Shown: positions 3,101-45,737, counted from the stretch's first letter. The stretch is 64,000 bases of DNA from an uncultured archaeon (GCA_963799775.1 CAWCYD010000003.1:288001-352000); one strand, 5' to 3'. Notes: a model not told the origin generated them from the letters alone. Numbers and translations: made by a program.

Positions 3101-3957
3101 GTCTTCCCAGATTGATGGAGCTCGTCGACGCCAGGAAGATCCCCGCTAAGCCTTCGATGGACGTGTATCTCGACGAGGGGTACAAGACGTCCAAGGAGAA
3201 GGCGGTGAAGGTGGCCAACGAGATCCTCTTCACAAGGATAGGCAACGTCGTGGACTACAGCGAGGTCGACCCGACCGAGGGCATCAAGCTGCACCTGAAC
3301 GAGGCCATGCTCGCCGAGAGGGACGTGAAAGCCGAAGACGTCGGCGAGGCTATGGAGACAGGCAAGAGGAACGTCCAGATCGAGCGCGGAGGCAAGGTCA
3401 TCCGTGTGAACATGGAGAACGCGGACCTCTCGAGCCTCTTCACCCTGAGAAACAAGCTCATGAACATGAAGCTAAAGGGCATCCCCGGCATCACCCGCGT
3501 GACCGTGGTGCAAGAGAACGACGAGTGGGTCATACAGACCGCCGGCTCCAACCTCGCAAAGGTCATCGCAGTCCCGGGAGTGGACACAAAGAGGATCACC
3601 ACCAACAACATCCACGAGGTCGCCCAGGTCCTAGGCATCGAGGCGGCACGCGCCACGCTGATCCGAGAGGTCATGAGCACGCTGGACGAGCAGGGCCTTG
3701 AGGTCGACGTCAGGCACATCTTCCTGGTCGCGGACCTGATGACGTCGAAGGGCTACCTGCAGCAGATCGGAAGGCACGGCATCGCGGGCACCAAGACGTC
3801 CGTCCTAGCAAGGGCCGCCTTCGAGATCACAGTCCCGACGCTCGCCGAGGCAGCGATCTACGGCGAGTCAGAGGAGTTGAAAGGCGTGACCGAGAACGTG
3901 ATTGTAGGCCTCCCCATCCCGGTCGGGACGGGGATAGTCGACCTCTACATGGGCTAG
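173..3957 (+). CDS. rpoA: DNA-directed RNA polymerase subunit A, unsplit A'+A'' (apparent frameshifts at ~480 and ~975)
   Basis: Zn finger CGTC...CPGHFGHIEL (173-), PPLTVRPSI (567 frame), catalytic YNADFDGDEMN and A''-type AAQSIGEPGTQMTL in one continuous frame 976-3957. Confidence 0.97.
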
Positions 3958-3975
3958 AAGGGTTGGATTGAGAAG

Positions 3976-4348
3976 ATGGTCACAAAATCGAAATCGACCG
4001 TGGCAGCCGCGACAGATCAGCAGGCTCCTCACACGGATCTTGAAAGAGGCGGTGAAGACCGGCAAGTACACGATAGGGACGAAGGAGACGACGTCCGAGA
4101 TGAAGAGCGCCAAGCTCGTGATCGCGGCCAAGACGATCTCCGACAAGGAGCCAGCGAAGACGAGCCTCTTCAAAGAGGCCGAGAAGAACAAGGTTCCCGT
4201 CGTGAAGACGGACAAGTCTTCGGCCCAGCTCGGAAGGATGATCGGCAGGCCATTCCGAGTCTCGTTCATCGCCTTGCGCGTGGTCCCAGAAGGAGACTTT
4301 AGGCAGCTTGTGGGCGCTCCTTCCCAGTCTGGCAAGGCTTCAGCGTGA
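3976..4348 (+). CDS. rpl30e: 50S ribosomal protein L30e (probable frameshift ~4020)
   Basis: AVKTGKYTIGTKET...LGRMIGRPFRVSFIAL, L7Ae/L30e-type motifs; canonical position between rpoA and nusA. Confidence 0.85.
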
Positions 4349-4352
4349 AAGC

Positions 4353-4796
4353 TTGCCCGAGATCAAGCTCTCAGCAGATCAACTGGGTCTAATCTCGATC
4401 TTCCAGAACATGAGCGGCGCGACGGTCAGGGACTGCATCGTCGACGAGAAGGGAGCACGTCTCATCTTCATAATCAACAACGGCCAGATGGGCCTGGCGA
4501 TAGGAAAGAAGGGCGCGACCATCCAGAACATCGAAAGGGTGATCAAGAAGCCAGTCGAGGTGGTCGAGTGGTCCGACGACCCCGCTGAGATGATTCGCAA
4601 CGCCCTCGACCCGCGAGCCATCCAGGAAGTGAGGCTGGTCGACAGGCTCGACGGGTCCAAGAGCATGTCGGTCGTCGTTGACCCGAGGAGGAAGGGCGCG
4701 GTCCTCGGTAGAGGCGGGAAGAACGCGGAGAAGGTGAGGCTGATCGCGAAAAAGTACTTCAACATCAGCAACGTCCAGATCGTCACCGCTTTCTGA
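4353..4796 (+). CDS. nusA: archaeal NusA (KH-domain transcription factor)
   Basis: GLAIGKKGATI and KGAVLGRGGKNAE KH motifs; TTG start at 4353; conserved synteny. Confidence 0.95.
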   Translation: MPEIKLSADQLGLISIFQNMSGATVRDCIVDEKGARLIFIINNGQMGLAIGKKGATIQNIERVIKKPVEVVEWSDDPAEMIRNALDPRAIQEVRLVDRLDGSKSMSVVVDPRRKGAVLGRGGKNAEKVRLIAKKYFNISNVQIVTAF

Positions 4797-4806
4797 GTCC
4801 CAACCC

Positions 4807-4813
4807 TTTTATA
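4807..4813 (+). promoter_or_regulatory. TATA box upstream of rps12 (probably leaderless transcript)
   Basis: TTTTATA ending 27 nt before the ATG at 4840. Confidence 0.55.
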
Positions 4814-4839
4814 CGCAACTCCGAGCACGACGCTGAAAC

Positions 4840-5268
4840 ATGCCCAGCGGAGAATTCGCGGCAAGGCAGATTGGGCTTCACAGGCAGAAGCTTCGCTGGA
4901 GCAACAAGTACTACAAGAGGAAAGTCCTCGGGCTAGACATCAAGGCAGACCCCTTTGAAGGTTCTCCGCAGGCAAGAGGCATCGTACTCGAGAAGGTAGG
5001 CATCGAATCGAAGCAGCCCAACTCGGCCATCCGGAAATGCGTAAGAGTCCAGATAGTGAAGAACGGTAAACAGGTCACAGCATTCCTCCCCGGAGACGGC
5101 GCGCTGAACTTCGTCGACGAGCACGACGAGGTCACGCTCGAAGGGATAGGCGGCTCCATGGGCAGAGCCATGGGCGACATCCCAGGAGTCCGATGGCAGG
5201 TGTCCAAGGTGAACGGTGTCTCGCTGAACGAGATGGTCTACGGACGGAAGGAGAAGCCAAGGAGATAG
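4840..5268 (+). CDS. rps12: 30S ribosomal protein S12 (uS12)
   Basis: [14 protein letters not shown] and GDIPGVRW motifs. Confidence 0.98.
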
Positions 5269-27145: not shown

Positions 27146-30000
27146 TCACCAGAACGGGCGCGTCTCGATGAACTTTAGCTTCGCATCGAGAAGCTCCTTG
27201 TAGAAGGTCTCCTCGTCTTCGTGCATCTTGGCGAGTATCCTCGCTGCCGTCTGAGGCCCCACCCCGTAGACAGCCTGGGCGACGATGGCCCTTCGCCCGT
27301 ATGACAAGACGAGGTCTGCGGCTCTCCTGGCCTTCGCGAGCTCGGCCCGCTCGTCGTCGTTCGGAGGCGAGGCCGCGGCCATCCTCTTCCTGAGGAGGCC
27401 CAACACGGTGCCCGAACTCCAGAAGCACGGCGTCAGCAACCCTGACGAGCAGCTCTTGCAACGCGGCTCTTCGGCCACCTCGCCGATCGTTGCAATTCCC
27501 TGAGGTTCGCCGCACTTCATGCACACGAGCTCGACCGAGGTGGTGTAGATGCTCAGCCTCATCTTCTCGATCGTCGTCTTGGCGAGGGAGTCGGGCGCTA
27601 TCAGCTCCGGCGCCTCTAGGTATCTGTAGAGGATGCTGTACGCTATCGGAGATGGTCGCTCCTTCGAGAGGTGCGTCTCGACCGTGACCTCCCCTGCGGC
27701 GACCTTGACAAGGAACTGCTTCGCGCGGGGCATGTCTATCATGTCCCGACCCGTCTCTTGCAGGGCCTCCTCGAAGATCGGGGTGTTCTCGAACCGGGTC
27801 GGGAGCGAGCAGAGGTTCGGATGGGCGATGAACTGACCCCGCCTGAGCGCGCCGAACCTTTCGGCTATCTGCTTCACCCTCGCGGGAAACGGGAAGTTCC
27901 TCTGCGCCGCGACCGCGTAGGTCTTCTCGAACTCCTCTGGACTCATCCCGATGAGCTCCTTGGAAAGGCTCTTCAGGTCGATGTCCTCTGTGTCGGTCGT
28001 CAGTTCGATCAGTATCCTGTAGCCGTCCATGTACCATAACCTGATGAGTCCTTTGCGGGAGACTGAACCTCTTCGAAGGTGTAGGCCAGCAGCCGGTTCA
28101 CTTTCTCGCCGAAGCAAGAGTGGATTATCAGGTACTTTTGCCATCCTTCGAAGAGCACGAGCTTGTCCGAGGGCAGAGGTATCCCGAGGCCTATGTGCTC
28201 AGAGATCTCGTCCGCGACCAGCTTCGAGCCGGCTGCGTTCACCGGAAACTCTGTGCTGAATGCGCCTGAAGCCTCCTCCTCGCTCGGCACCTCGTGAATC
28301 AGGTCTGCCACCCTCTTCCTGAGCTCTCCGCTCTTCTGGGCGAGTCCGAACGGCACGGGGAGCATCTCGCCGTCCCATCCAGGCACGGCGGCGAGAGGGT
28401 CCTCGATGGAGGTCACGTAGATCTTCCTGTCGTTGGCGATCTTCTCTATCTGCCAGATCTTTCCCTTTAGGATGAAGTGGAGGCCCACCTTCGCCTGGAG
28501 CAGAACGAACTCCTCTCCGAGTATCCCCACAGCTTGGTTCGTTGCCACGTCGACCACGAAGTATCTCGTCTCGTCCGGGATCGTCGAGAGGTTCTCGTAG
28601 TAATACTCCCTCGTAGCCCGCGTCCTAGAGAGCCTCTCTCCGTCCAACCTTATCTTGCGGATCTCACTCAGATAGCTGATGACCCTTCCCAGGGTCTCGT
28701 CGTCGAGGTCGCGGTAGGGGTAGCAGGCCCTGAGCTCTGAGAGGAGCGTCTTGCGCTCGACGCTGTCGTAGTCCATGAGGTATCCGGCGACCTGGTGGGA
28801 GAGCACGTCGAGGCTCTTCTCATACGGCGCGGTCTCCTCCATCCTTCCGTTCGTCGCCTCGACTATGGCAGCCGTCGACTCTAGGACGTCGTCTGCGCTC
28901 ACGGCCAGTAGAACCCCCTTCGAGTGGCGCTGGAGGCTGTGACCCGACCTCCCCACCCTTTGGATCAGCGACGTGACCTGTCTCGGAGACATGTATTGGA
29001 TCACGAGGTCGACCGAGCCTATGTCTATCCCCAGCTCCAGCGTGGAGGTGCAGACGAGTGCGCGAACCTGGCCGGTCCTGAAAGCGTTCTCCACCCGTTC
29101 TCTCTCCTCGCGCGGAAGGGAGCCGTGGTGCACCCCGACGTCCCCGCGCATCCTGTTCAGCTTCTCGCCGAGCATCTCGGCGGTGGTCCTGCTGTTGACG
29201 AAGATCAAGGTCGACCTGTTCGCCTCGATCAGCTCGCTCATCTTCGAGAGCCTCGAGGCCATGTCTATGCCGGCGAAGGCGTCTCTCGAGACAGCGGCGT
29301 CCTCGGGCCTCGGCGTCGTGTACTCCACGAGGTAGCCTACTTTCTTCGGAGCGTAAGCCTGGACTATGTGGTGCTCTCCCCCAGGGCCGAAGATGAAATC
29401 CGCCGCCACCCGGGGGCTGCCGACCGTGGCCGAGAGCGCGACCACCTGATATCTTCCCGCGACCTTCCTCAGGCGCTGCAGGCCGACCGTCAGCTGCACC
29501 CCCCTCTTGCTCTCGACGAGGTTGTGAAGCTCGTCCACGACCACCGCCTTCACGTCCGCCAGGCTCACGCGCATCCGCCGACCGGGTAGCATCGCCTGGA
29601 GCGTCTCTGGCGTGGTGACTAGGACGTCCGGCGGATTCCTCGACTGTTTCTCCCTCTGGGATTGTGGCGTGTCTCCGTGCCTCACGTCAAGGGTGAGGGA
29701 GAGCTTCGTGCACCAGAACTGCAACCTACGCAACATATCCCTGTTAAGGGCTCTGAGCGGTGTGATGTAGAGGAGTGAGATGCCATGCCGGGGACCGCTC
29801 CTGACCAGGTTGCTCAGGAGAGGCAGTATGGCCGCTTCCGTCTTGCCCGACCCCGTCGGAGCTACGACCAGGACGTCCTTGCCTTGCAAGATTAGGGGGA
29901 TGGCCTCGACCTGGGGAGGTGTCGGGTCGCCGATTCCGCCCTCCGTCAGGAGCGCCCTGACCGGCTCGGCGAGAGACTCGAAGACCCCTGCGTTTGCCAT
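27146..30000 (-). CDS. lhr: Lhr-like DEAD/H ATP-dependent helicase with C-terminal Zn finger (frameshift ~28070)
   Basis: APTGSGKT, DELH, SAT, HHGSL, TSTLELGIDIG, QRVGRSGH; C-terminal CMKC...CKSC and GVGPQTAARIL. Confidence 0.93.
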
Positions 30001-32581: not shown

Positions 32582-33474
32582 GTGAAGAGCGAGAGAATAG
32601 GCTTCATCGGACTGGGGATAATGGGAAGTCTCATGGCCCAGAATCTGATCGACGCAGGATTCAAGCTAACCGTGTTCAACAGGAGCAGGCCAAGGATGGA
32701 GAGGCTCGTCTCAGCAGGAGCGGCTCCATCGACGTCACCGAGGGAGGTCGCGGAAAAGAGCGACGTCGTGATCACCATGGTGACCGACTCGGAGGCTGTG
32801 AAGGAAGTGGTCCTCGGCAAGGGAGGCGTCGTCGAAGGGGCGCATGCGGGCCTGGTCCTCATCGACATGAGCACCATCTCTCCGAGCGTGACGAGGAGCC
32901 TGTCTTCAGCGCTCAGCTCAAAGGGGGTGACGATGCTCGATGCCCCTGTCAGCGGCGGAGACAAGGGAGCCAAGGAGATGGACACCTGACGATTATGGTC
33001 GGAGGCCCGTCCAAGGCCTACGAATCGTGCCTGCCGATCCTCCAAGTTTTGGGCAAGAAGGTGGTCCACATGGGCGAGAGCGGGGCCGGGCAGTTCACCA
33101 AGCTCGCGAACCAGATCTTGGTGGCGTGCAACATGATAGGCGTCTCGGAGTGTCTGAACTTCGCCCGCAAGGCCGGGTTGGATCCAGACAAGCTCATCGA
33201 CTCCCTCTCAGCGGGTGCGGCTTCCTCTTGGAGCTTGGTGAACCTTGGTCCAAGGATGGTGAAGAGAGACTTCGCGCCCGGCTTCAAGGTCAAGCTGCTC
33301 GAGAAGGATCTCCGCTACGTCCTCTCGTCCGGCGAGGAGTAGGATGCATCCCTCCCAGCGACCTCCCTCGTCTACAAGCTCTATCAGCAGCTCGAACGAA
33401 AGGGTCTCGGGGACCTCGGCACCCAGGCATTGCTGACCGTCGTCGAGCAGCCCTCTGACGAGAGCCGAGACTAG
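32582..33474 (+). CDS. NAD(P)-dependent 3-hydroxyisobutyrate dehydrogenase-family oxidoreductase (frameshift ~32985, in-frame TAG at 33340)
   Basis: IGFIGLGIMGS, DAPVSGG, FTKLANQI, FAPGFKV; homolog-like sequence continues past the TAG (SLPATSLVYKLY...GLGDLGTQAL). Confidence 0.88.
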
Positions 33475-33725: not shown

Positions 33726-33785
33726 GAATATTGCGACGGGCCCCTTGGCGAAGCTTTTACTCCGCACGTCAGGAGGCGTTCGGGT

Positions 33786-34815
33786 TTGACCGAGTACGAC
33801 ATCGGGCTGACCGGTCTTCACGCGAGGAACGAGAAGACAATCCAGGCGACCCAGGACTGGGAGAGGAGCAGGATCAACGACACGATACTTGACGAGAACT
33901 TGGTCAAGGACTGCGAGCAGCTCGTAGAGCTTCAGAAGCGCCTCGGGGTGAGATATCTGACCGACGGGCAGATCACCCTTCCGTGGCATGAACCTCTTCC
34001 GACCCATCAGCGCCGGGTTCGAAGGGCTCGAGCCGGGGCCGATGGTCAGGTGGTTCAACACCAACACATTCTTCTTCACTCCCATAGTGACAGGCGAGAT
34101 TTCATCAGACGGGAATGTCCTCTCCAAGACCATCGAGAAGAGGTTCGCCGACCAGGCGTCGTCCTCCCTCAAGGTCGTCCTGCCCGACCCTCTCACGTTC
34201 TCTGAGCTCTCCGAGGACAGGATCTACTCGAACAAAGAGAAGCTCCAGTTCGCCTACGCCGACGCGATCTCAAGGGAGCTGCGGGGTCTCTCTTCCGTCG
34301 GCGTGAGGTACGTGCAGTTCTCGTCGCCCAGCCTGGTCTACAGGCTGAAGCAGCGGCCCCTCAAGCGGGACGATCTCAAGCAGCTCGGCGAGGCGATACG
34401 GAGCGCCCTGAAACGGGTCAACCTGGCATCGGGGTTCTATCCCTTCTTCGGAGACGCCTCGCCTTACCTCCCGGACCTTTTCGACGTCATCCCGACGGAC
34501 GACATCGGGATAGACCTCACGCAGACGGACGATTCGGCCCTCTCGGAGACAAAGAAGGGGATTATCGCGGGGATAGTCGACTCTCGCACCACGTATCTCG
34601 AGGACGTCGAGTCGCTCGCGGCGCGCGCCGAGCTAGTCCAGGAACGGACGGGCACGAAGAGGCTCACGCTCGCCCCCTCCGCCGACCTCAGGTACATCCC
34701 ACGAGTCCACGCCGACCAGAAGCTCGAGCTTCTCGGGCGTCTCAAGTCTGTCTTGAAGAAGGGTTCTCCGAAGAAACGAAAGGCGCCAGTCAAGAGGAGG
34801 ACATCGAGGAATTGA
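33786..34815 (+). CDS. metE: cobalamin-independent methionine synthase, N-terminal (non-catalytic) half of split MetE (frameshift ~33988)
   Basis: LTDGQ, VRWFNTNTFF (compare RWFDTNYHY), GIVDSRTT, LAPSADL; no Zn ligands. Confidence 0.82.
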
Positions 34816-36007
34816 AGCCCTTCCCTACGCAAGAGATAGGCAGCCTGCCGAAGTTCGCGTGGAGGTCCAAGCCTTTCAGGCAGATGCCTCTCACTGACGA
34901 CGACCTCGAGACAGCCCGCCAATGGGGAGACCGGCTCCAGGTCGAGGGAAGGACCGACCTCTACAGGCTGCTCTCGAAACGCTACTCTTTCAGCGAGGAA
35001 GAGAAGAAGACTATCGTCGACTTCTCCCTCCTCTACGCCATACGGATGTGCGAGACCGCTGGCCAAGGCATCGCCGAAGAGCCCGGGCTCGACCTGGTGT
35101 GGAGCGGCGAACAGGCGAGGACGGAGATGTACGAGACACCGGTCTCAAACATCGACGGCTTCGAGTTCGTCGGCCGGGTGAGGAGCTTCGACAACAAGTA
35201 CTGGAGGATGGCGTCGATACGCTCGCCACCGAGATACAAGGAGAACTACCACCTGGACGAGTTCCTCTACACCAAGGAGAACACGTCTCGGAGACGCAAA
35301 GGTCCCCGTGACCGACGCCATCACAATCATGGCGTGGTCGGACAACAACTACTACACGGGCAAGTGGGCGAAGAAGGGCAGCCTGAAGCCTGCCCAGAGA
35401 AGTTTCAGCGCCCGCAGGGACTTCACTCTGGAGCTCGCGAAGATAATCCGGAAGGTTATCCGAGAGCTCATCGAGAAGGGAGTCGAGGAGGTCCAGATCG
35501 ACATCCCAGCGGCCACACAGTATCAGTCGGAGGACGACATCAAGCTGGTAGCCGAGTCTTTCAACGAGACGACGGAAGGGCTCTCGGCCACCTTCAGCGT
35601 CCACAGCTGCTTCCCTCCGAGCACGGGTTACGGAATACTCTTCCCCCACCTCCTCGAGATGAAGAAGTGCGAGCGTTTCTCGTTCGAGTACGGCAACCGG
35701 GACACCTTCGAGACGGGTCTAGACGCCCACTCCAGAGTCGGGTTCGAGGAACCTCAAGCTGTTCAAGGAGTACGGCTACAAGAAGGAGCTGGGCGTCGGC
35801 GTGATTCACATCCACACCGACACCCTCCCGAGCGCCGAGGTCGTCAGGGACCGCGTCCTGTACTCCGCCAAGGTCACAGGGCTCCCGCCAGAGAACCTCT
35901 TTGCGACCCCGGACTGCGGTCTGCGGACGAGGCGCCCAGAGGTGGCCCAGAAGATGCTGGACCTCACCGTGGCCGGGGCGGAGCTCGCGAGGCGAGCTTA
36001 CGCTTGA
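34812..36007 (+). CDS. metE: cobalamin-independent methionine synthase, catalytic half of split MetE (frameshifts ~35297, ~35750)
   Basis: PTQEIGSLP, SGEQARTEM, VRSFDNKYW, Zn ligands VHSC / FEY / PDCGLRT. Confidence 0.88.
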
Positions 36008-37255
36008 TTCCCAAGGTCACGACAATAGGGAGCTATCCCACATTCCCGCGGTCCGAGGAAGTGGAGTACTACTACACGATCTCGCAGCACGGACTCGGCG
36101 GCGAGGTGGTCGACCCCTACCTTTGGGCGATCGAGGAAGCCATCAAGGACTTCACCTCCGCTGGAGTCGAGGTTCGCGTCGACCGGCCAGTCCAGAGGTG
36201 ACCTCTACTCGCTCTTCCTCGACCCGAAGTTCGTGAAAGGCGTCTCGTGGCAGGGGGCGGACGCCTACATCAACGAGAAGATCGAGCGAACCGGGCCCAT
36301 CCGCCTCGCCGACGCGCTCCATGCGAGGGCCGTCCTCCCGAGGCAATACGAGCTGAAGGAGCCCATAACCGACGCCTACACGCTCGCCCGTTACGCGAAG
36401 ATCAACACGGGGGCCTACGCAGACACAAGGGAACTTGCGAAGGAGATCAACAGGAAGATAATCATCCCCGAGATCGAAGACCTACAGAAGAGCGGCGCCG
36501 TCTCATGGCTCCAACTCGACTCCCCGACGATCGCGGCCGAGTCCTCCCCCCCCGACTACATCAGGGACCTCTACGAGGAGCTCGCGACGGTCTCGAAACT
36601 CCCGATCGTCGTGCACGCCTGCGGCGACACGGTGAGGATATTCTCTTCGTTGCTCACGAAGCTCAAGGTCCAGACGATCTCGATGGACTTCTACCATTAT
36701 CCAAAGCTCTTCGAGGAGGTGGCCAAGAAGAGCTACGACCAGACCATAGGCCTCGGCTGCACCGACAGCCAGAGCCCGCGGGTCGAGACCGTCGACGAGA
36801 CCAGGCGGCTCATCGCGTTCGCCCAGGTGAGGATAGGGAGGGACAGGATCCAGTTCGTGCACCCTCACTGCGGCCAGAGGAACCTCAACCGCGAGGTCGC
36901 GTACGAGAAGAACGTCGTCCTGACCCTCGCTCGGGACGACGCTTGCTTCGGCCAGCCTGAGGAGGCCTCTGCGTCCCATCTCACTGAGAAGGAGTACGAC
37001 CCCAAGGGCTACTTCCTCGTCGCGGTGAGCAGGGAGACGAAGGAGATAGTCGTGACCTACTACACCTTCGAGCACGTAGCGAAGAAGAGGTTCAGGAGCA
37101 AGTCCGCCGAGAGGCTATTCCAGTCCCTCAACGACGAGGCCGACGCTCTTGGGCTATCGAGGAGGCACCTCTCCTACCTGACGCTCGAGCTTGGGCGCGC
37201 CGAGGCCTCACTCGCCTCCGAGTCGCAGACCTATCGGCAAAAAGTGATAGAGTAG
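36004..37255 (+). CDS. second core methionine-synthase-like protein (MesA-like) fused to a C-terminal DUF4346-like domain (frameshift ~36175)
   Basis: TTG start overlaps previous TGA; TTIGSYP, DPYLWAIEEAI, TGQSRGD, VHACG, PHCGQR; C-terminal DPKGYFLV...HLSYLTLELGRAEASL. Confidence 0.78.
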
Positions 37256-38131
37256 TGAGGCTTGCGGAGAGGCTGGAGAGAGGCATCTTCACCACGGTGG
37301 TGGAGATCTTCCCTCCGAACTTCAGCGCCGAGACGGCAAAAGAGCCTCTGCTCGGCCTACGCCAGAAGACGCAGGACATCGTCGCCCGGGTGAAGAAGGT
37401 GGAGTACCTGGCGGACTGCGTCCTTGTGGCCGACATGAATGGACCTGGGCAGGCTGAAGCTCTCGAGCATATACACCGCGGCGATGCTAAAGCGGGAACT
37501 TGACACGGAGGTCATCCCGGTCATCGCAGCCAGGGACGGCAACAGGTCTGCGGTAAGGGCACTCTTCTTGAGCGCCCTTTCCTACGGTCTGGACTCCGTG
37601 ATGCTCGTGTGGGGTGACCGGTATAACGAAGGGGAGGGCTCTGCCAACGTCTACGACTTCCCTTCGCTCTCCGTCGTCATCAAGGAGATGAGGGAGCTGG
37701 CGGAAAGGGCGGACGTCAAGGCCACCATCCTTGCCCCCGTGAACATCGCGACGCTCGGGACCAAGAAGGGCGACGAGATCGCGAGCTCGCGACTCAAGAA
37801 CGGGGCCGATTGCCTGCTCGCCCAGCCGCCCACCTCTGACGTGACGCAGACGCTGCCCAGTCAGGTCAAGATCCTGGAAGAGAAGAAGCTGAAGAAGAGG
37901 GTGCTCCTCAACGTCTTCCCGTTCAGGGACAAGGAGGACATCGAGGCGTGCCGGAAGCGATTCAACTGGAACATCCCACCGGCATTGGACAAGATGGCCG
38001 AGGAAGGAGGAGAGGCCAGGCTGCTCAAGGAGTCGAGGTCTGTTGTGGAGAAGATGCGAAACGACCGCCTCCCCGGGGTCTACGTCTCGACTAGAGGCAG
38101 ACCTGAACTCGCGCGCTTCATCCTCGACTGA
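37255..38131 (+). CDS. metF: 5,10-methylenetetrahydrofolate reductase-like protein (frameshift ~37440)
   Basis: VEIFPP, VIPVIAARDGNR, MLVWGD, GADCLLAQP; directly follows the methionine synthase genes. Confidence 0.8.
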
Positions 38132-40105: not shown

Positions 40106-41732
40106 GCGTGCGACACTTGCGCTCTTCCGGACTCGAATCAGCGCCGCCGAGTCGAGCCGACAAAGGGAAGAGGCCGAAGAAGGAGCTCAGCCTCTTGCGA
40201 GGAGGGATAGCGGTCCTGGATTTCGGAGGTCAGTACTCTCACCTCATAGCCAGGCGGATCAGGGGCCTCGGCGTCTACGCGGCCCTCCTCCCGTTCGACG
40301 CGACGCTCCATTCGCTGCAAGAGATGGGAGTCAAAGGCGTGGTCCTCTCAGGGGGACCGTCCAGCGTCTACGAGCCAGGGGCACCTCACCCAGACAAGGA
40401 GATCTTCTCCGGGAAGATCCCGGTCCTGGGCATCTGCTACGGCTACCAACTCCTAGTCCAGGGCCACGGCGGCGAGGTTAAGAAAGCTGCAAGGAGGGAG
40501 TACGGCAAGTCCAGCCTCAGGATAACCGACCGCGCCACCCTCTTCAAAGGGATAGACGAGGCGACGATGACCTGCTGGATGAGCCACGGCGACTCGGCGA
40601 CGAAGCTACCGCGAGACCTCTCCACGATGGCCACGAGCGACAACTCGCCCTTCGCGGCGATCAAGTCTGCCGACGGCGTCCAGTTCGGCGTCCAGTTCCA
40701 CCCTGAGGTGGTGCACACGCAGAACGGCGACAGGATACTCTCCAACTTCGTCTTTTCTGTCTGCGAGGCAGAGCGAAAGTGGACGATGAAAGAGTTCCTC
40801 GAGGACACGCTCGAGGAGCTCGAGCGGACCGACGATGGAAGGGTGCTCTGCGCCGTCTCTGGAGGCGTCGACTCCTCTGTCGCCTCCGTCCTCCTGAACA
40901 AGGCCCTCCACGAGAGGCTCCAGTGCGTCTTCATCGACACCGGGCTGCTGCGGGAGGGCGAGGCCGAGGAGGTGTCACGGTTCCTTAGGCACGACCTGGG
41001 GGTCCCGATCGAGTTCGAGGATGCCTCTGAACTCTTCTTGAAGTCCCTGAGAGGCGTCACCGACTCCGAAGAGAAGAGGAAGATCATCGGGCGAACCTTC
41101 GCCGAAGTGTTCGAAGAATACGCGAGGAAGAAAGGGCCTTTCCGATATCTCGCTCAGGGGACACCTATATCCGGATGTGATAGAGAGCGGACACACCAAC
41201 GCGCCCGCCTCGATCATCAAGACGCACCACAACGTCGGAGGGCTCCCGAAGGCAACTCAAGCTGGAGCTGATCGAGCCTCTGAGGGAGCTATACAAGGAC
41301 GAGGTCAGGGCGCTCGGAGTCCTGCTTGGCCTGCCCTCCACCGTGGTCGGCAGGCATCCGTTCCCTGGTCCCGGTCTCGCCGTCCGGATAATAGGAGAGG
41401 TCACTCCTGAGAAGCTCACGGTCTGCCGGGGCGCCAACGCCGTGGTCGAGCAAGTCATGCGGGAGGAGAAGCTCTATGACGAGGTCTGGCAGGCATTCGC
41501 GTACGTGGGCGACGACAAGGTCACAGGCGTGCTCGGGGACGTGCGGCGCCTCGGTTACCAAGTGACTGTGCGGATAGTCCAATCGGTGGACGCGATGACC
41601 GCCGACTGGTATCGCCTTCCCTACGAGGTCATGGAGAAGATCTCGGGAAGGATAACCAACGAGGTCGAGGGCGTCGTGAGCGTCGCGTACTCGATCTCCT
41701 CGAAGCCGCCTGCCACGATCGAGCCCCAGTGA
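40102..41732 (+). CDS. guaA: GMP synthase, glutamine-hydrolysing (frameshifts ~41160, ~41260)
   Basis: [59 protein letters not shown]. Confidence 0.95.
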
Positions 41733-44810: not shown

Positions 44811-45737
44811 ATGACGGAGTTCAAGCTGAGCCTCTCGACGGTGCCCTTCGACCTGAGGCACAGCCTAGACAGCGGGCAGGTGTTCCGGTGGGAGCAGAAG
44901 GGCGAGTGGTGGACGGGGTGCAAGGAACGGAGCGATCAAGGTCAAGCAGGAGGAGGCATCGCTCCTCTGTGTGACGGAGAGCGATTCCATAACAGCTCAG
45001 ACGATGCACGAGTACTTCCGCATCGACGACAGCATGGAGAGGATATACTCGCAGATAATGAAGGACGAACACATCTCGGAGGCCATCCAGCGATTCTACG
45101 GGCTGCGGCTCATGAAGCAAGACACTTGGGAGTGCCTCGTCTCCTTCGTGGTTGCGACGAACGCGAACATCCCAAGGATCAGGCTGATGATCTCCAACCT
45201 CTGCCACAAGTTCGGCGAGACGATATCGTTCGAAGGGAACCCATACTCTCTCTTCCCTGATCCCGCGTCGCTGGCCGCCGCAACGGTCGAAGAGCTCACG
45301 TCTTGCGGCCTAGGATACCGCGCCAGGTTCATCAAGTCGGTCGCCGAGATGGTGAGCTCAGGCCACGTCGACCTCGAAGAACTGAAGCTCCAGGACTACG
45401 AGAAAGCGAGGGGCCTCCTAATAGAGCGCCTGCTCGGGGCGAAGACCCTGCTCGGCATAGGGAGGAAAGCGGCGGACTGCATCCTCCTCTTCTCGTGCGG
45501 CAAAGACTCGGCCTTCCCGATAGACGTCTGGATGGCGAAGTCCTCGCGAGATACTACCCGTTCCTCTTCGACAAGGAGACGGCCCGGCGACTCGAAGCCC
45601 ACGTCACGGGTTCAAAGCGGCTCGCGTCGCGCGAGTACGAGACGACCTCGTCCTCAATGAGGGACTACTTCGGAGAGTACGCAGGGTACGCGCAGCAGTA
45701 TCTCTTTCACGACGCGAGGAAGAACAAGCTGGCCTGA
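44811..45737 (+). CDS. ogg: 8-oxoguanine DNA glycosylase, OGG1-type (frameshifts ~44920, ~45540)
   Basis: LDSGQVFRW, QDTWECLVSF, GLGYRA, GIGRKAADC, FPIDVW, AGYAQQYLF. Confidence 0.9.

Follow-up and report, generated by a model that had tools for sequence, protein, structure and literature searches.

The described methionine synthases that come closest to the genes reported here are the core enzymes and the split MetE enzymes. The physiological methyl donors of the core enzymes are still only predicted, that of MesA being MtrA (Price et al. 2021, PMC7857596). Here we analyze a four-gene operon in a 64,000-nt stretch of DNA from an uncultured archaeon (GCA_963799775.1 CAWCYD010000003.1:288001-352000; "the window" in what follows is this whole stretch), in which a split MetE is followed by a second, MesA-like barrel fused to a DUF4346 domain (PF14251) and by a divergent member of the methylenetetrahydrofolate reductase (MTHFR) family. 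The host is a soil archaeon of the Gagatemarchaeaceae type, within the Nitrososphaerota (Thaumarchaeota), and the operon serves methionine synthesis.

The operon occupies positions 33786-38131 on the plus strand and comprises four same-strand genes, g1 to g4, which are translationally coupled at all three junctions, as an earlier note on this DNA had described. At the g1/g2 and g2/g3 junctions the tetranucleotide TTGA (34812-34815 and 36004-36007) combines a TTG start with a TGA stop; at the g3/g4 junction, TAGTG (37253-37257), the TAG stop and the GTG start overlap in G37255. Pfam matches and orthologue alignment identify g1 (33786-34815; 342 aa when read through its frame break, see below) as the Meth_synt_1-type, N-terminal-half subunit of a split MetE, and Pfam, active-site residues, and phylogeny identify g2 (34812-36007; 397 aa read through) as the Meth_synt_2 catalytic subunit. 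The third gene, g3 (36004-37255), encodes 416 aa when read through: a putative MesA-like core homocysteine methyltransferase barrel of the Meth_synt_2 fold (36004-36976; assigned from Pfam, NCBIfam, AF2/Foldseek, and residues) and a C-terminal PF14251 (PterinBD-DUF4346) domain (36998-37240; 52.1 bits in the organism's own genome, G000:C3:324998-325240). The last gene, g4 (37255-38131; 291 aa read through), encodes the divergent MTHFR-family protein, recognized by Pfam and by a family profile. All motifs quoted in the earlier note (TTIGSYP, DPYLWAIEEAI, GQSRGD, HAC, PHCG, DPKGYFLV, and HLSYLTLELGRAE) are present in the translation. Source records label such genes "hypothetical protein" or, generically, "methionine synthase II." We are confident that the operon makes methionine, with g4 supplying methyl-pterin and g1 and g2 forming a split MetE.

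In no paper found is there a description of the DUF4346 fusion, of its occurrence beside a split MetE and an MTHFR in Thaumarchaeota, or of the MtrA/MtrH-linked sister clade that we report below. The available part of the text of Price et al. (2021, PMC7857596) contains none of the terms PF14251, Thaumarchaeota, or Nitroso, and its protein lists could include some of these genes. The available part of Sheridan et al. (2023, PMC10640624) does not mention methionine, cobalamin, folate, methanopterin, B12, or pterin, and among the papers listed by a search on MtrA, MtrH, and methionine synthase there is, by titles and the beginnings of abstracts, none about such an operon. The suggestion of an undescribed architecture in a non-methanogen thus stands in so far as no study of it was found; the architecture is not unique, since proteins labeled Nanoarchaeota share it, in an mtrA/mtrH operon.

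The g3 fusion protein and its relatives

The g3 barrel matches Meth_synt_2 both in the window (E = 5.4e-14, long piece) and in the intact orthologue at locus L014 (7.4e-20). For the AF2 model of its closest intact relative (pLDDT 90.5), the best Foldseek match is the C-terminal domain of T. maritima MetE (1xpg, 1.5e-18). It is, as had been proposed, a second MetE barrel with putative zinc ligands of its own (H, C, D, C): in E. coli numbering, g3 carries Ser433, Gln484, Asp599, His641, Cys643, Asp665, and Cys726. Gln484 through Cys726 are invariant among 43 members of the g3 family (Q62, D172, H204, C206, D228, and C289 in g3 family numbering), and Ser433 is kept in at least 90% of them. All fused relatives share the combination Ser433/Gln484/Asp599, with the exception of P0116, where position 433 is Lys.

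The best NCBIfam family for g3 is NF002119 (PRK00957), the type that we take to be MesA, the core methionine synthase of methanogens. The g3 score of 136.5-138 bits does not reach the cut-off of 258, which a single one of 14 named control genomes passes. By BLASTP, g3 has 29% identity (109 bits) to P0127 (301 aa), whose own score of 392 bits passes NF002119, compared with 24% identity (39 bits) to g2. Judged by these proxies, NF002119 and P0127, and not by a characterized MesA sequence, g3 falls short of the MesA rule (174 bits, about 40% identity). Like MesA, it is a single Meth_synt_2 barrel without the folate-binding half, and it has Gln at the position of Glu484 while keeping Ser433 and Asp599; Gln at 484 is reported for both MesA and MesC (Price et al. 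2021, PMC7857596). Unlike MesA, for which His641, Cys643, Glu665, and Cys726 are expected, it has Asp at 665, a residue that the characterized and active MesB also has (Price et al. 2021, PMC7857596), and it carries the DUF4346 extension of 90 aa. MesA is furthermore described from methanogens only, with MtrA as predicted donor (Price et al. 2021, PMC7857596), whereas g3 comes from a non-methanogen, a metagenome-assembled genome (MAG) of the Nitrososphaerota, and the genomes searched yielded no MtrA.

We built a maximum-likelihood (ML) tree from 40 barrel rows, with the fused proteins trimmed to their first 305-325 residues; it excludes the partial P0115, most of the 106 family members, and named MesB, MesC, and MesD references, is rooted at the midpoint only, and has E. 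coli MetE as a long branch. The g3 fusions form a clade of their own (support 100/100), which has a long stem (0.75) and its own motifs HPHCGQR and LDFYHYP and is sister to a fused group that includes the Nanoarchaeota-labeled P0121 (83/95). Both groups adjoin the NF002119-passing cores and lie apart from the clade that unites g2 with the catalytic subunits of archaea of the ammonia-oxidizer type (AOA type). The grouping is thus with MesA-type cores and not with ordinary MetE2 paralogs or another URO-D/MetE-fold family. On its sequence, g3 is not a paralog of g2; nor, by the tests made, is it a MesA. It appears rather to be a MesA-like but distinct core homocysteine methyltransferase, for which catalysis is plausible from the residues kept. 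The description of g3 as MesA-like therefore holds for its best family, its position in the tree, its greater closeness to that type than to g2, and Gln484; it does not hold for the family cut-off or for the presence of MtrA.

The C-terminal domain of g3 is DUF4346, as the earlier note had suggested: PF14251 matches it in the window at 48.9 bits (hmmscan, 1.1e-12; profile positions 2-85 of 86), well above the cut-off of 29.6, and in the intact L014 orthologue (50 bits) the gathering cut-off is passed over the whole model. Conserved motifs are GYF, RH..Y, ELG(R/K)AE..L, and YRQ. A model of the domain alone (pLDDT 86.6) has three predicted beta strands followed by two long helices. Foldseek with this model found nothing in the PDB at E ≤ 0.001, and we read its best match (0.048, TM about 0.3, to reverse-transcriptase chains) as noise. 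A profile of the g3 family searched against the PDB matched the barrel only, with nothing for DUF4346; in the protein atlas there was no usable match for the domain, and whole g3 led only to generic archaeal core Meth_synt_2 clusters. A literature search found no paper naming DUF4346, PF14251, TIGR00284, or MJ0107.

Searched with phmmer against 1.84 billion representatives, the 92-aa domain had only 19 matches, so the census of architectures is thin. Among the 10 of these that were scanned with Pfam there are Meth_synt_2+DUF4346 proteins, an MtrA+DUF4346 protein (P0117), and proteins with DUF4346 alone or followed by unknown sequence. In NCBIfam, the domain ends the DHPS-like (dihydropteroate synthase-like) family TIGR00284 and the MtrA variant NF002128; these share the C-terminal DUF4346 with g3 but have a different catalytic or carrier domain, and neither is present in the window's genus. 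An AOA-type relative, G029, encodes a 520-aa DUF6513-Pterin_bind-DUF4346 protein (L084:1955-3514, minus strand). DUF4346 thus travels with three kinds of proteins of methyl-transfer chains: pterin-binding, corrinoid-carrying, and thiol-methylating. The domain is single-copy in the six genomes of the family searched for PF14251, and for this reason we dropped the idea of a heterodimerization tag shared among several DUF4346 proteins per cell. As a separate observation, the G029 protein and one at G034:C32:35905-36927 (520-570 aa) combine DUF6513 with a weak match to Pterin_bind and a strong one to DUF4346 (89.8 bits), a TIGR00284-like architecture seen in AOA-type relatives and not in the window's genus.

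The fusion is conserved well beyond this assembly. Among 5.8 billion proteins there are 106 homologues of g3; the full-length ones have 410-430 aa, and most carry PF14251 together with PF01717. The fusion occurs in 21 of the 22 genomes of the genus (the sole genome that lacks it is 57% complete), in one of the two other genera of the family, and in two other families of the order (40%-43% identity). Named assemblies, all of them MAGs, contain 38 fusion loci: 30 are labeled as Thaumarchaeota or Nitrososphaerota types, one of these being Candidatus Gagatemarchaeum stordalenia, and eight as "archaeon" only. The order g1-g2-g3-g4 is found at 33 of the 38 loci, with three more cut by contig ends, and g4 directly follows g3 at 36. 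The exceptions are L069, with g3-g4 but no g1-g2, and L073, where a g4-like gene precedes g3. Since both fusion and gene order are conserved in related MAGs, the fusion does not reflect a lost stop codon, and it is real. In one small genome of unstated completeness (G042), g3 is the only Meth_synt_2 match, with a g4-like gene beside it; g3 may therefore suffice alone.

A second type of fusion operon is found on two metagenome contigs (L093:4555-8134 and L092:4561-8173), where an mtrA-like gene, an mtrH-like gene, and a MesA-DUF4346 gene follow one another with overlapping codons. The first, MtrA-like protein of this row (192 aa, 118 bits) aligns to the solved MtrA structure 5laa (7.5e-24), with the His of its GH motif aligned to a His in 5laa. 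The second, MtrH-like protein (287-289 aa, 145-152 bits) matches the methylcorrinoid:tetrahydrofolate methyltransferase 6sj8 (2.6e-27), and the third is the fusion (401-407 aa), which in L093 carries the NCBI label Nanoarchaeota. A canonical MTHFR gene (168-209 bits) converges on the row from the opposite strand, and MTHFR is the one neighbor family common to both types of fusion operon. The Nanoarchaeota-labeled fusions (P0121, P0123-P0126) share with g3 the two-domain architecture, the DUF4346 motifs, the adjacent MTHFR, and the sister-clade relationship. They differ from it in that their barrels pass NF002119 (280-290 bits), that P0121 has Glu at 665, and that they lie behind mtrA- and mtrH-like genes instead of a split MetE; identity to g3 is 29%-33%.

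By functional analogy, this cluster resembles MetH, with the pterin methyltransferase, the corrinoid carrier, and the homocysteine methyltransferase split into separate proteins, and it looks like a MetH-like, modular, corrinoid-dependent methionine synthase outside the methanogens. Its homocysteine module is not homologous to that of MetH, however, and searches of the window's own lineage showed neither PF02574 nor a corrinoid carrier. The route on these contigs probably runs from MTHFR through MtrH and MtrA to MesA-DUF4346. Such a modular row agrees with MtrA as the donor to MesA, as predicted by Price et al. (2021, PMC7857596), and it gives that prediction genomic support outside the methanogens. 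The sister clade, in abundant acid-soil Thaumarchaeota, has kept the fusion with a split MetE and an MTHFR, and MtrA and MtrH were not found there. Comparison of the two clades should reveal the role of DUF4346 and whether a MesA-type barrel works without a corrinoid.

The split MetE and the MTHFR-family gene

That g1 and g2 together are a split MetE, the one with the Meth_synt_1-type half and the other with the Meth_synt_2 half and canonical residues, is borne out by several lines of evidence. The g1 piece in the window scores 53.2 bits (4.2e-14) to Meth_synt_1 and 18.1 bits to Meth_synt_2, and its 355-aa orthologue at L014 scores 51.8 and 15.7 bits; g1 is thus a separate protein of at most 400 aa with the higher score to Meth_synt_1, as a split MetE should have. 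Alignment places the orthologue on residues 93-331 of S. mutans MetE (2nq5, 755 aa; E = 8.5e-10). The start of g1 is uncertain: similarity to orthologues begins at 33744, and the first start codon is the TTG at 33786. The Meth_synt_2 match of g2 has an E-value of 1.4e-08 for the last piece in the window and 3.2e-22 for the intact L014 orthologue. Its best NCBIfam families are NF002272 (208 bits) and NF003317 (201 bits), each below its own cut-off; we use these scores as a stand-in for the published rule on the catalytic component of a split MetE, a phmmer score of 200 bits or more to P. furiosus PF1269. None of the three MetE-fold genes approaches full-length MetE (TIGR01371; ~750 aa, >930 bits), g1, g2, and g3 scoring 51.5, 85.2, and 32 bits.

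At E. coli positions 433, 484, 599, 641, 643, 665, and 726, g2 has S, E, D, H, C, E, and C, and it keeps all seven catalytic positions in every lineage examined, including the most divergent; we dropped on this ground the idea of a decayed, noncatalytic g2 in divergent lineages. With the split-MetE catalytic subunits of AOA-type archaea it forms one clade (support 100/99). As in the archaeal split MetE of Price et al., a g1 adjacent to a 397-aa g2 with canonical zinc and homocysteine residues is present, here joined by the TTGA overlap. The difference is that a third MetE-fold gene follows the pair with overlapping codons; in AOA-type relatives within the order, g1 and g2 stand as a pair and g3 is lacking. 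Four loci (L060, L061, L075, and L076, at about 3700-4990 in each) have a very divergent g2 orthologue (tree stem 2.62, 29% identity) with its own motifs TMDIGSG, FDLEWPRTEM, and VLDCGQRN.

The g4 protein is most probably a divergent MTHFR. In this genus it stays below the Pfam cut-off of 24 for MTHFR (PF02219), with 16.9 bits in the window and 21.2 bits at L014. All 14 members of the g4 family nevertheless match MTHFR at E ≤ 0.01 (best 7.7e-14), and a match of the family profile to T. thermophilus MTHFR (1v93) spans positions 71-289 (3.2e-07). A PDB search with the single g4 sequence gave no matches, and the family profile was needed. In another genome of the same order (G027, L087:1044-3749), an MTHFR-family open reading frame (ORF) resembling g4 (35% identity over 107 aa) stands before g1-like and g2-like genes; from this gene order, the divergent MTHFR is linked to split MetE even without g3.

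Source of the methyl group and role of DUF4346

Searches of the window's lineage for the components of a corrinoid relay came back empty. With Pfam, MtrA was found in none of five genomes of the genus and none of five divergent g3-bearing genomes; MtrH in none of 24 genomes of the family, and in three of 16 genomes from the order's other families; and the MetH-type homocysteine domain PF02574 in none of the 23 of the genus that were searched. A clear B12-binding domain occurs only once in the genome (G000:C2:186494); it adjoins a methylmalonyl-CoA mutase fragment, and we dropped it as a candidate methyl carrier on that ground. The Pterin_bind protein of the genus was likewise dropped as a MeTr-like methyltransferase: in the complete relative G007 it scores 220 bits to TIGR01496 (cut-off 162.6), which makes it a true DHPS, and it is encoded beside a CADD-family folate protein. 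A DHPS, together with the failure to find MtrA, MtrH, or PF02574, makes a folate route plausible, and no corrinoid relay is visible. In an AOA-type genome (G029, L111:356-2370), a URO-D-family protein (363 aa, 158 bits) is encoded directly before an MtrH-like protein (301 aa, 278 bits), and the two may form a corrinoid methyl-transfer pair in this ammonia-oxidizer-type genome.

As to where g3 gets its methyl group, what DUF4346 does, and why the operon has two synthases, we infer the following. The g4 enzyme would make a methyl-tetrahydropterin, most likely methyl-tetrahydrofolate, which g1 and g2 would use as an ordinary archaeal split MetE. Descended from MesA-type core synthases and permanently joined to DUF4346, g3 would be a second, catalytically competent homocysteine S-methyltransferase. 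The window's lineage would have lost, or never had, MtrA and MtrH, yet it retains a strongly conserved g3-DUF4346 beside the MTHFR; g3 would then take its methyl group from the pterin made by g4, directly or helped by g1, and DUF4346 would recognize the donor or its carrier. We give an even chance to this reading, in which g3 is a second active synthase fed from the pterin route without MtrA or MtrH and DUF4346 is a donor-recognition or docking module.

Several points weigh against it. No folate site is known in MesA-type enzymes, and methylcobalamin is the in vitro methyl donor of those characterized (Price et al. 2021, PMC7857596). Genes for MtrA and MtrH accompany the nearest fused relatives, which points to a corrinoid-dependent ancestry, and the organism does use B12, as it encodes a methylmalonyl-CoA mutase. 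No DHPS was found in the organism's own genome, which is 81.7% complete by its score. Methionine synthesis can be explained without g3, because g2 has lost none of its catalytic residues in any lineage examined. The donor role suggested for DUF4346 comes by analogy, from its company of DHPS-like, MtrA-like, and MesA-like proteins; for the domain itself, neither a solved structural relative (PDB, E ≤ 0.001) nor literature was found. A predicted complex of g3 and g4 scored 0.00 against a mark of 0.32, and we count this prediction, which had no controls, neither way.

A stronger form of the same idea is conceivable, and we hold it as doubtful: g3 would be the founder of a fifth kind of core methionine synthase, a MesA-derived barrel freed of the corrinoid relay and using methyl-tetrahydrofolate directly, with DUF4346 as a portable methyl-donor module that binds methyl-pterin or docks the MTHFR or pterin enzyme producing it. 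If this were true, DUF4346 would supply the adaptor so far missing between MtrA/MtrH-type relays and MesA in other archaea, and it would offer a first handle on the physiological donor of MesA.

It is unlikely, in our estimate, that g3 is still corrinoid-dependent, with methylcobalamin either free or bound to a carrier that the Pfam MtrA and B12-binding models miss, and with DUF4346 docking the carrier or cofactor. The operon would in that case hold a B12-independent route (g1 and g2) and a B12-dependent route (g3), as E. coli does with MetE and MetH. The mtrA-like, mtrH-like, mesA-DUF4346 operons of the fused relatives speak for such a dependence, as do the fusion of DUF4346 to MtrA-like proteins (P0117 and NF002128), the predicted role of MtrA as MesA donor, and the B12 enzyme methylmalonyl-CoA mutase in the genome. 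It is opposed by the failure to find MtrA in any of the 10 g3-bearing thaumarchaeal genomes searched, MtrH in any of 24 of the family, or PF02574 in any of 23 of the genus, so that the searches revealed no enzyme able to load a corrinoid from methyl-pterin (proteins of the CoFeSP type were not searched for), and also by the identity of the genus' only Pterin_bind protein found, a true DHPS.

Tight coupling of the genes would also suit an arrangement in which g3 is a third subunit beside g1 and g2, in a three-barrel methionine synthase with DUF4346 as an assembly or oligomerization domain; a three-subunit complex had been raised in the earlier note. The overlapping start and stop codons and the constant order at 33 of the 38 loci are in keeping with this. 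Price et al. (2021, PMC7857596) note that the two halves of a split MetE associate in a complex, and a domain found on three catalytic or carrier folds that are unrelated, as DUF4346 is, would fit a general role in assembly. We nonetheless regard it as improbable: g3 keeps the full set of catalytic residues, it occurs with g4 and without nearby g1-g2 at L069 and alone with a preceding g4-like gene at L073, and the single copy of PF14251 in six genomes of the family leaves no other DUF4346 partner there.

We give little credence to the view that g3 methylates a different acceptor, another thiol or a selenol, and belongs to the operon only through a shared methyl donor. Two catalytically intact barrels in one operon do invite a division of labor, the g3 clade has its long stem and private motifs, and Price et al. 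(2021, PMC7857596) suggest that some MesC proteins found alongside split MetE have another function. However, the homocysteine contacts Ser, Gln, and Asp are kept in the pattern of MesA and MesC, and in G042 g3 is the sole Meth_synt_2 match.

Frame breaks and assembly of the window

The reading frames of the operon are broken five times within 4.3 kb: twice in g2 and once each in g1, g3, and g4. Compared with three intact orthologues (L014, L040, and L041), each break is a single extra base, at about 33989 (g1), at 35293-35296 and 35750 (g2), at 36173-36176 (g3), and at 37440 (g4). In the public run X1, contigs that are otherwise identical to the window have exactly one base fewer at 35296, 35750, and 37440; this comparison rests on one contig per site, at a depth of 2.2-3.7, and no identical contig spans the other two sites. 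Read through, g2, g3, and g4 have the same lengths as their intact orthologues (397, 416, and 291 aa).

The same kind of damage extends along the window. We surveyed it with 41 gene proxies from the syntenic 50 kb of G007, 18 of which gave usable hits: nine of the 18 are affected, by 13 frame changes in all (0.63 per kb), and the broken genes include one of 945 aa and the GMP synthase gene. Example spots are 27149-29982 (minus strand), 32989-32995, 40342-41729 (plus strand), and 44811-45719 (plus strand). As three of the extra bases are missing from X1 contigs and neighboring genes show like breaks, all five are errors of the assembly consensus, and the genes are intact in life. Five breaks across 4.3 kb could also suggest true frameshifts in an operon that this strain is losing. 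This is hardly credible: at three of the five sites, X1 contigs that match in all else lack the extra base; half of the usable neighboring proxies, housekeeping genes included, are broken likewise; no further disabling changes accompany read-through lengths that match the orthologues; and the genome yielded no other methionine synthase.

Errors of this kind would conceal all four genes from gene callers, and calls made on the assembly will be fragmented. The genome consists of only three contigs and has a completeness score of 81.7%; the low score fits frame-broken marker genes and is probably an underestimate. Directly upstream of the operon in G007 (L013:864-2117), there is a 417-aa ORF with zinc-finger-like Cys pairs that has no match in the window and may be a mobile-element gene inserted beside the operon in that genome.

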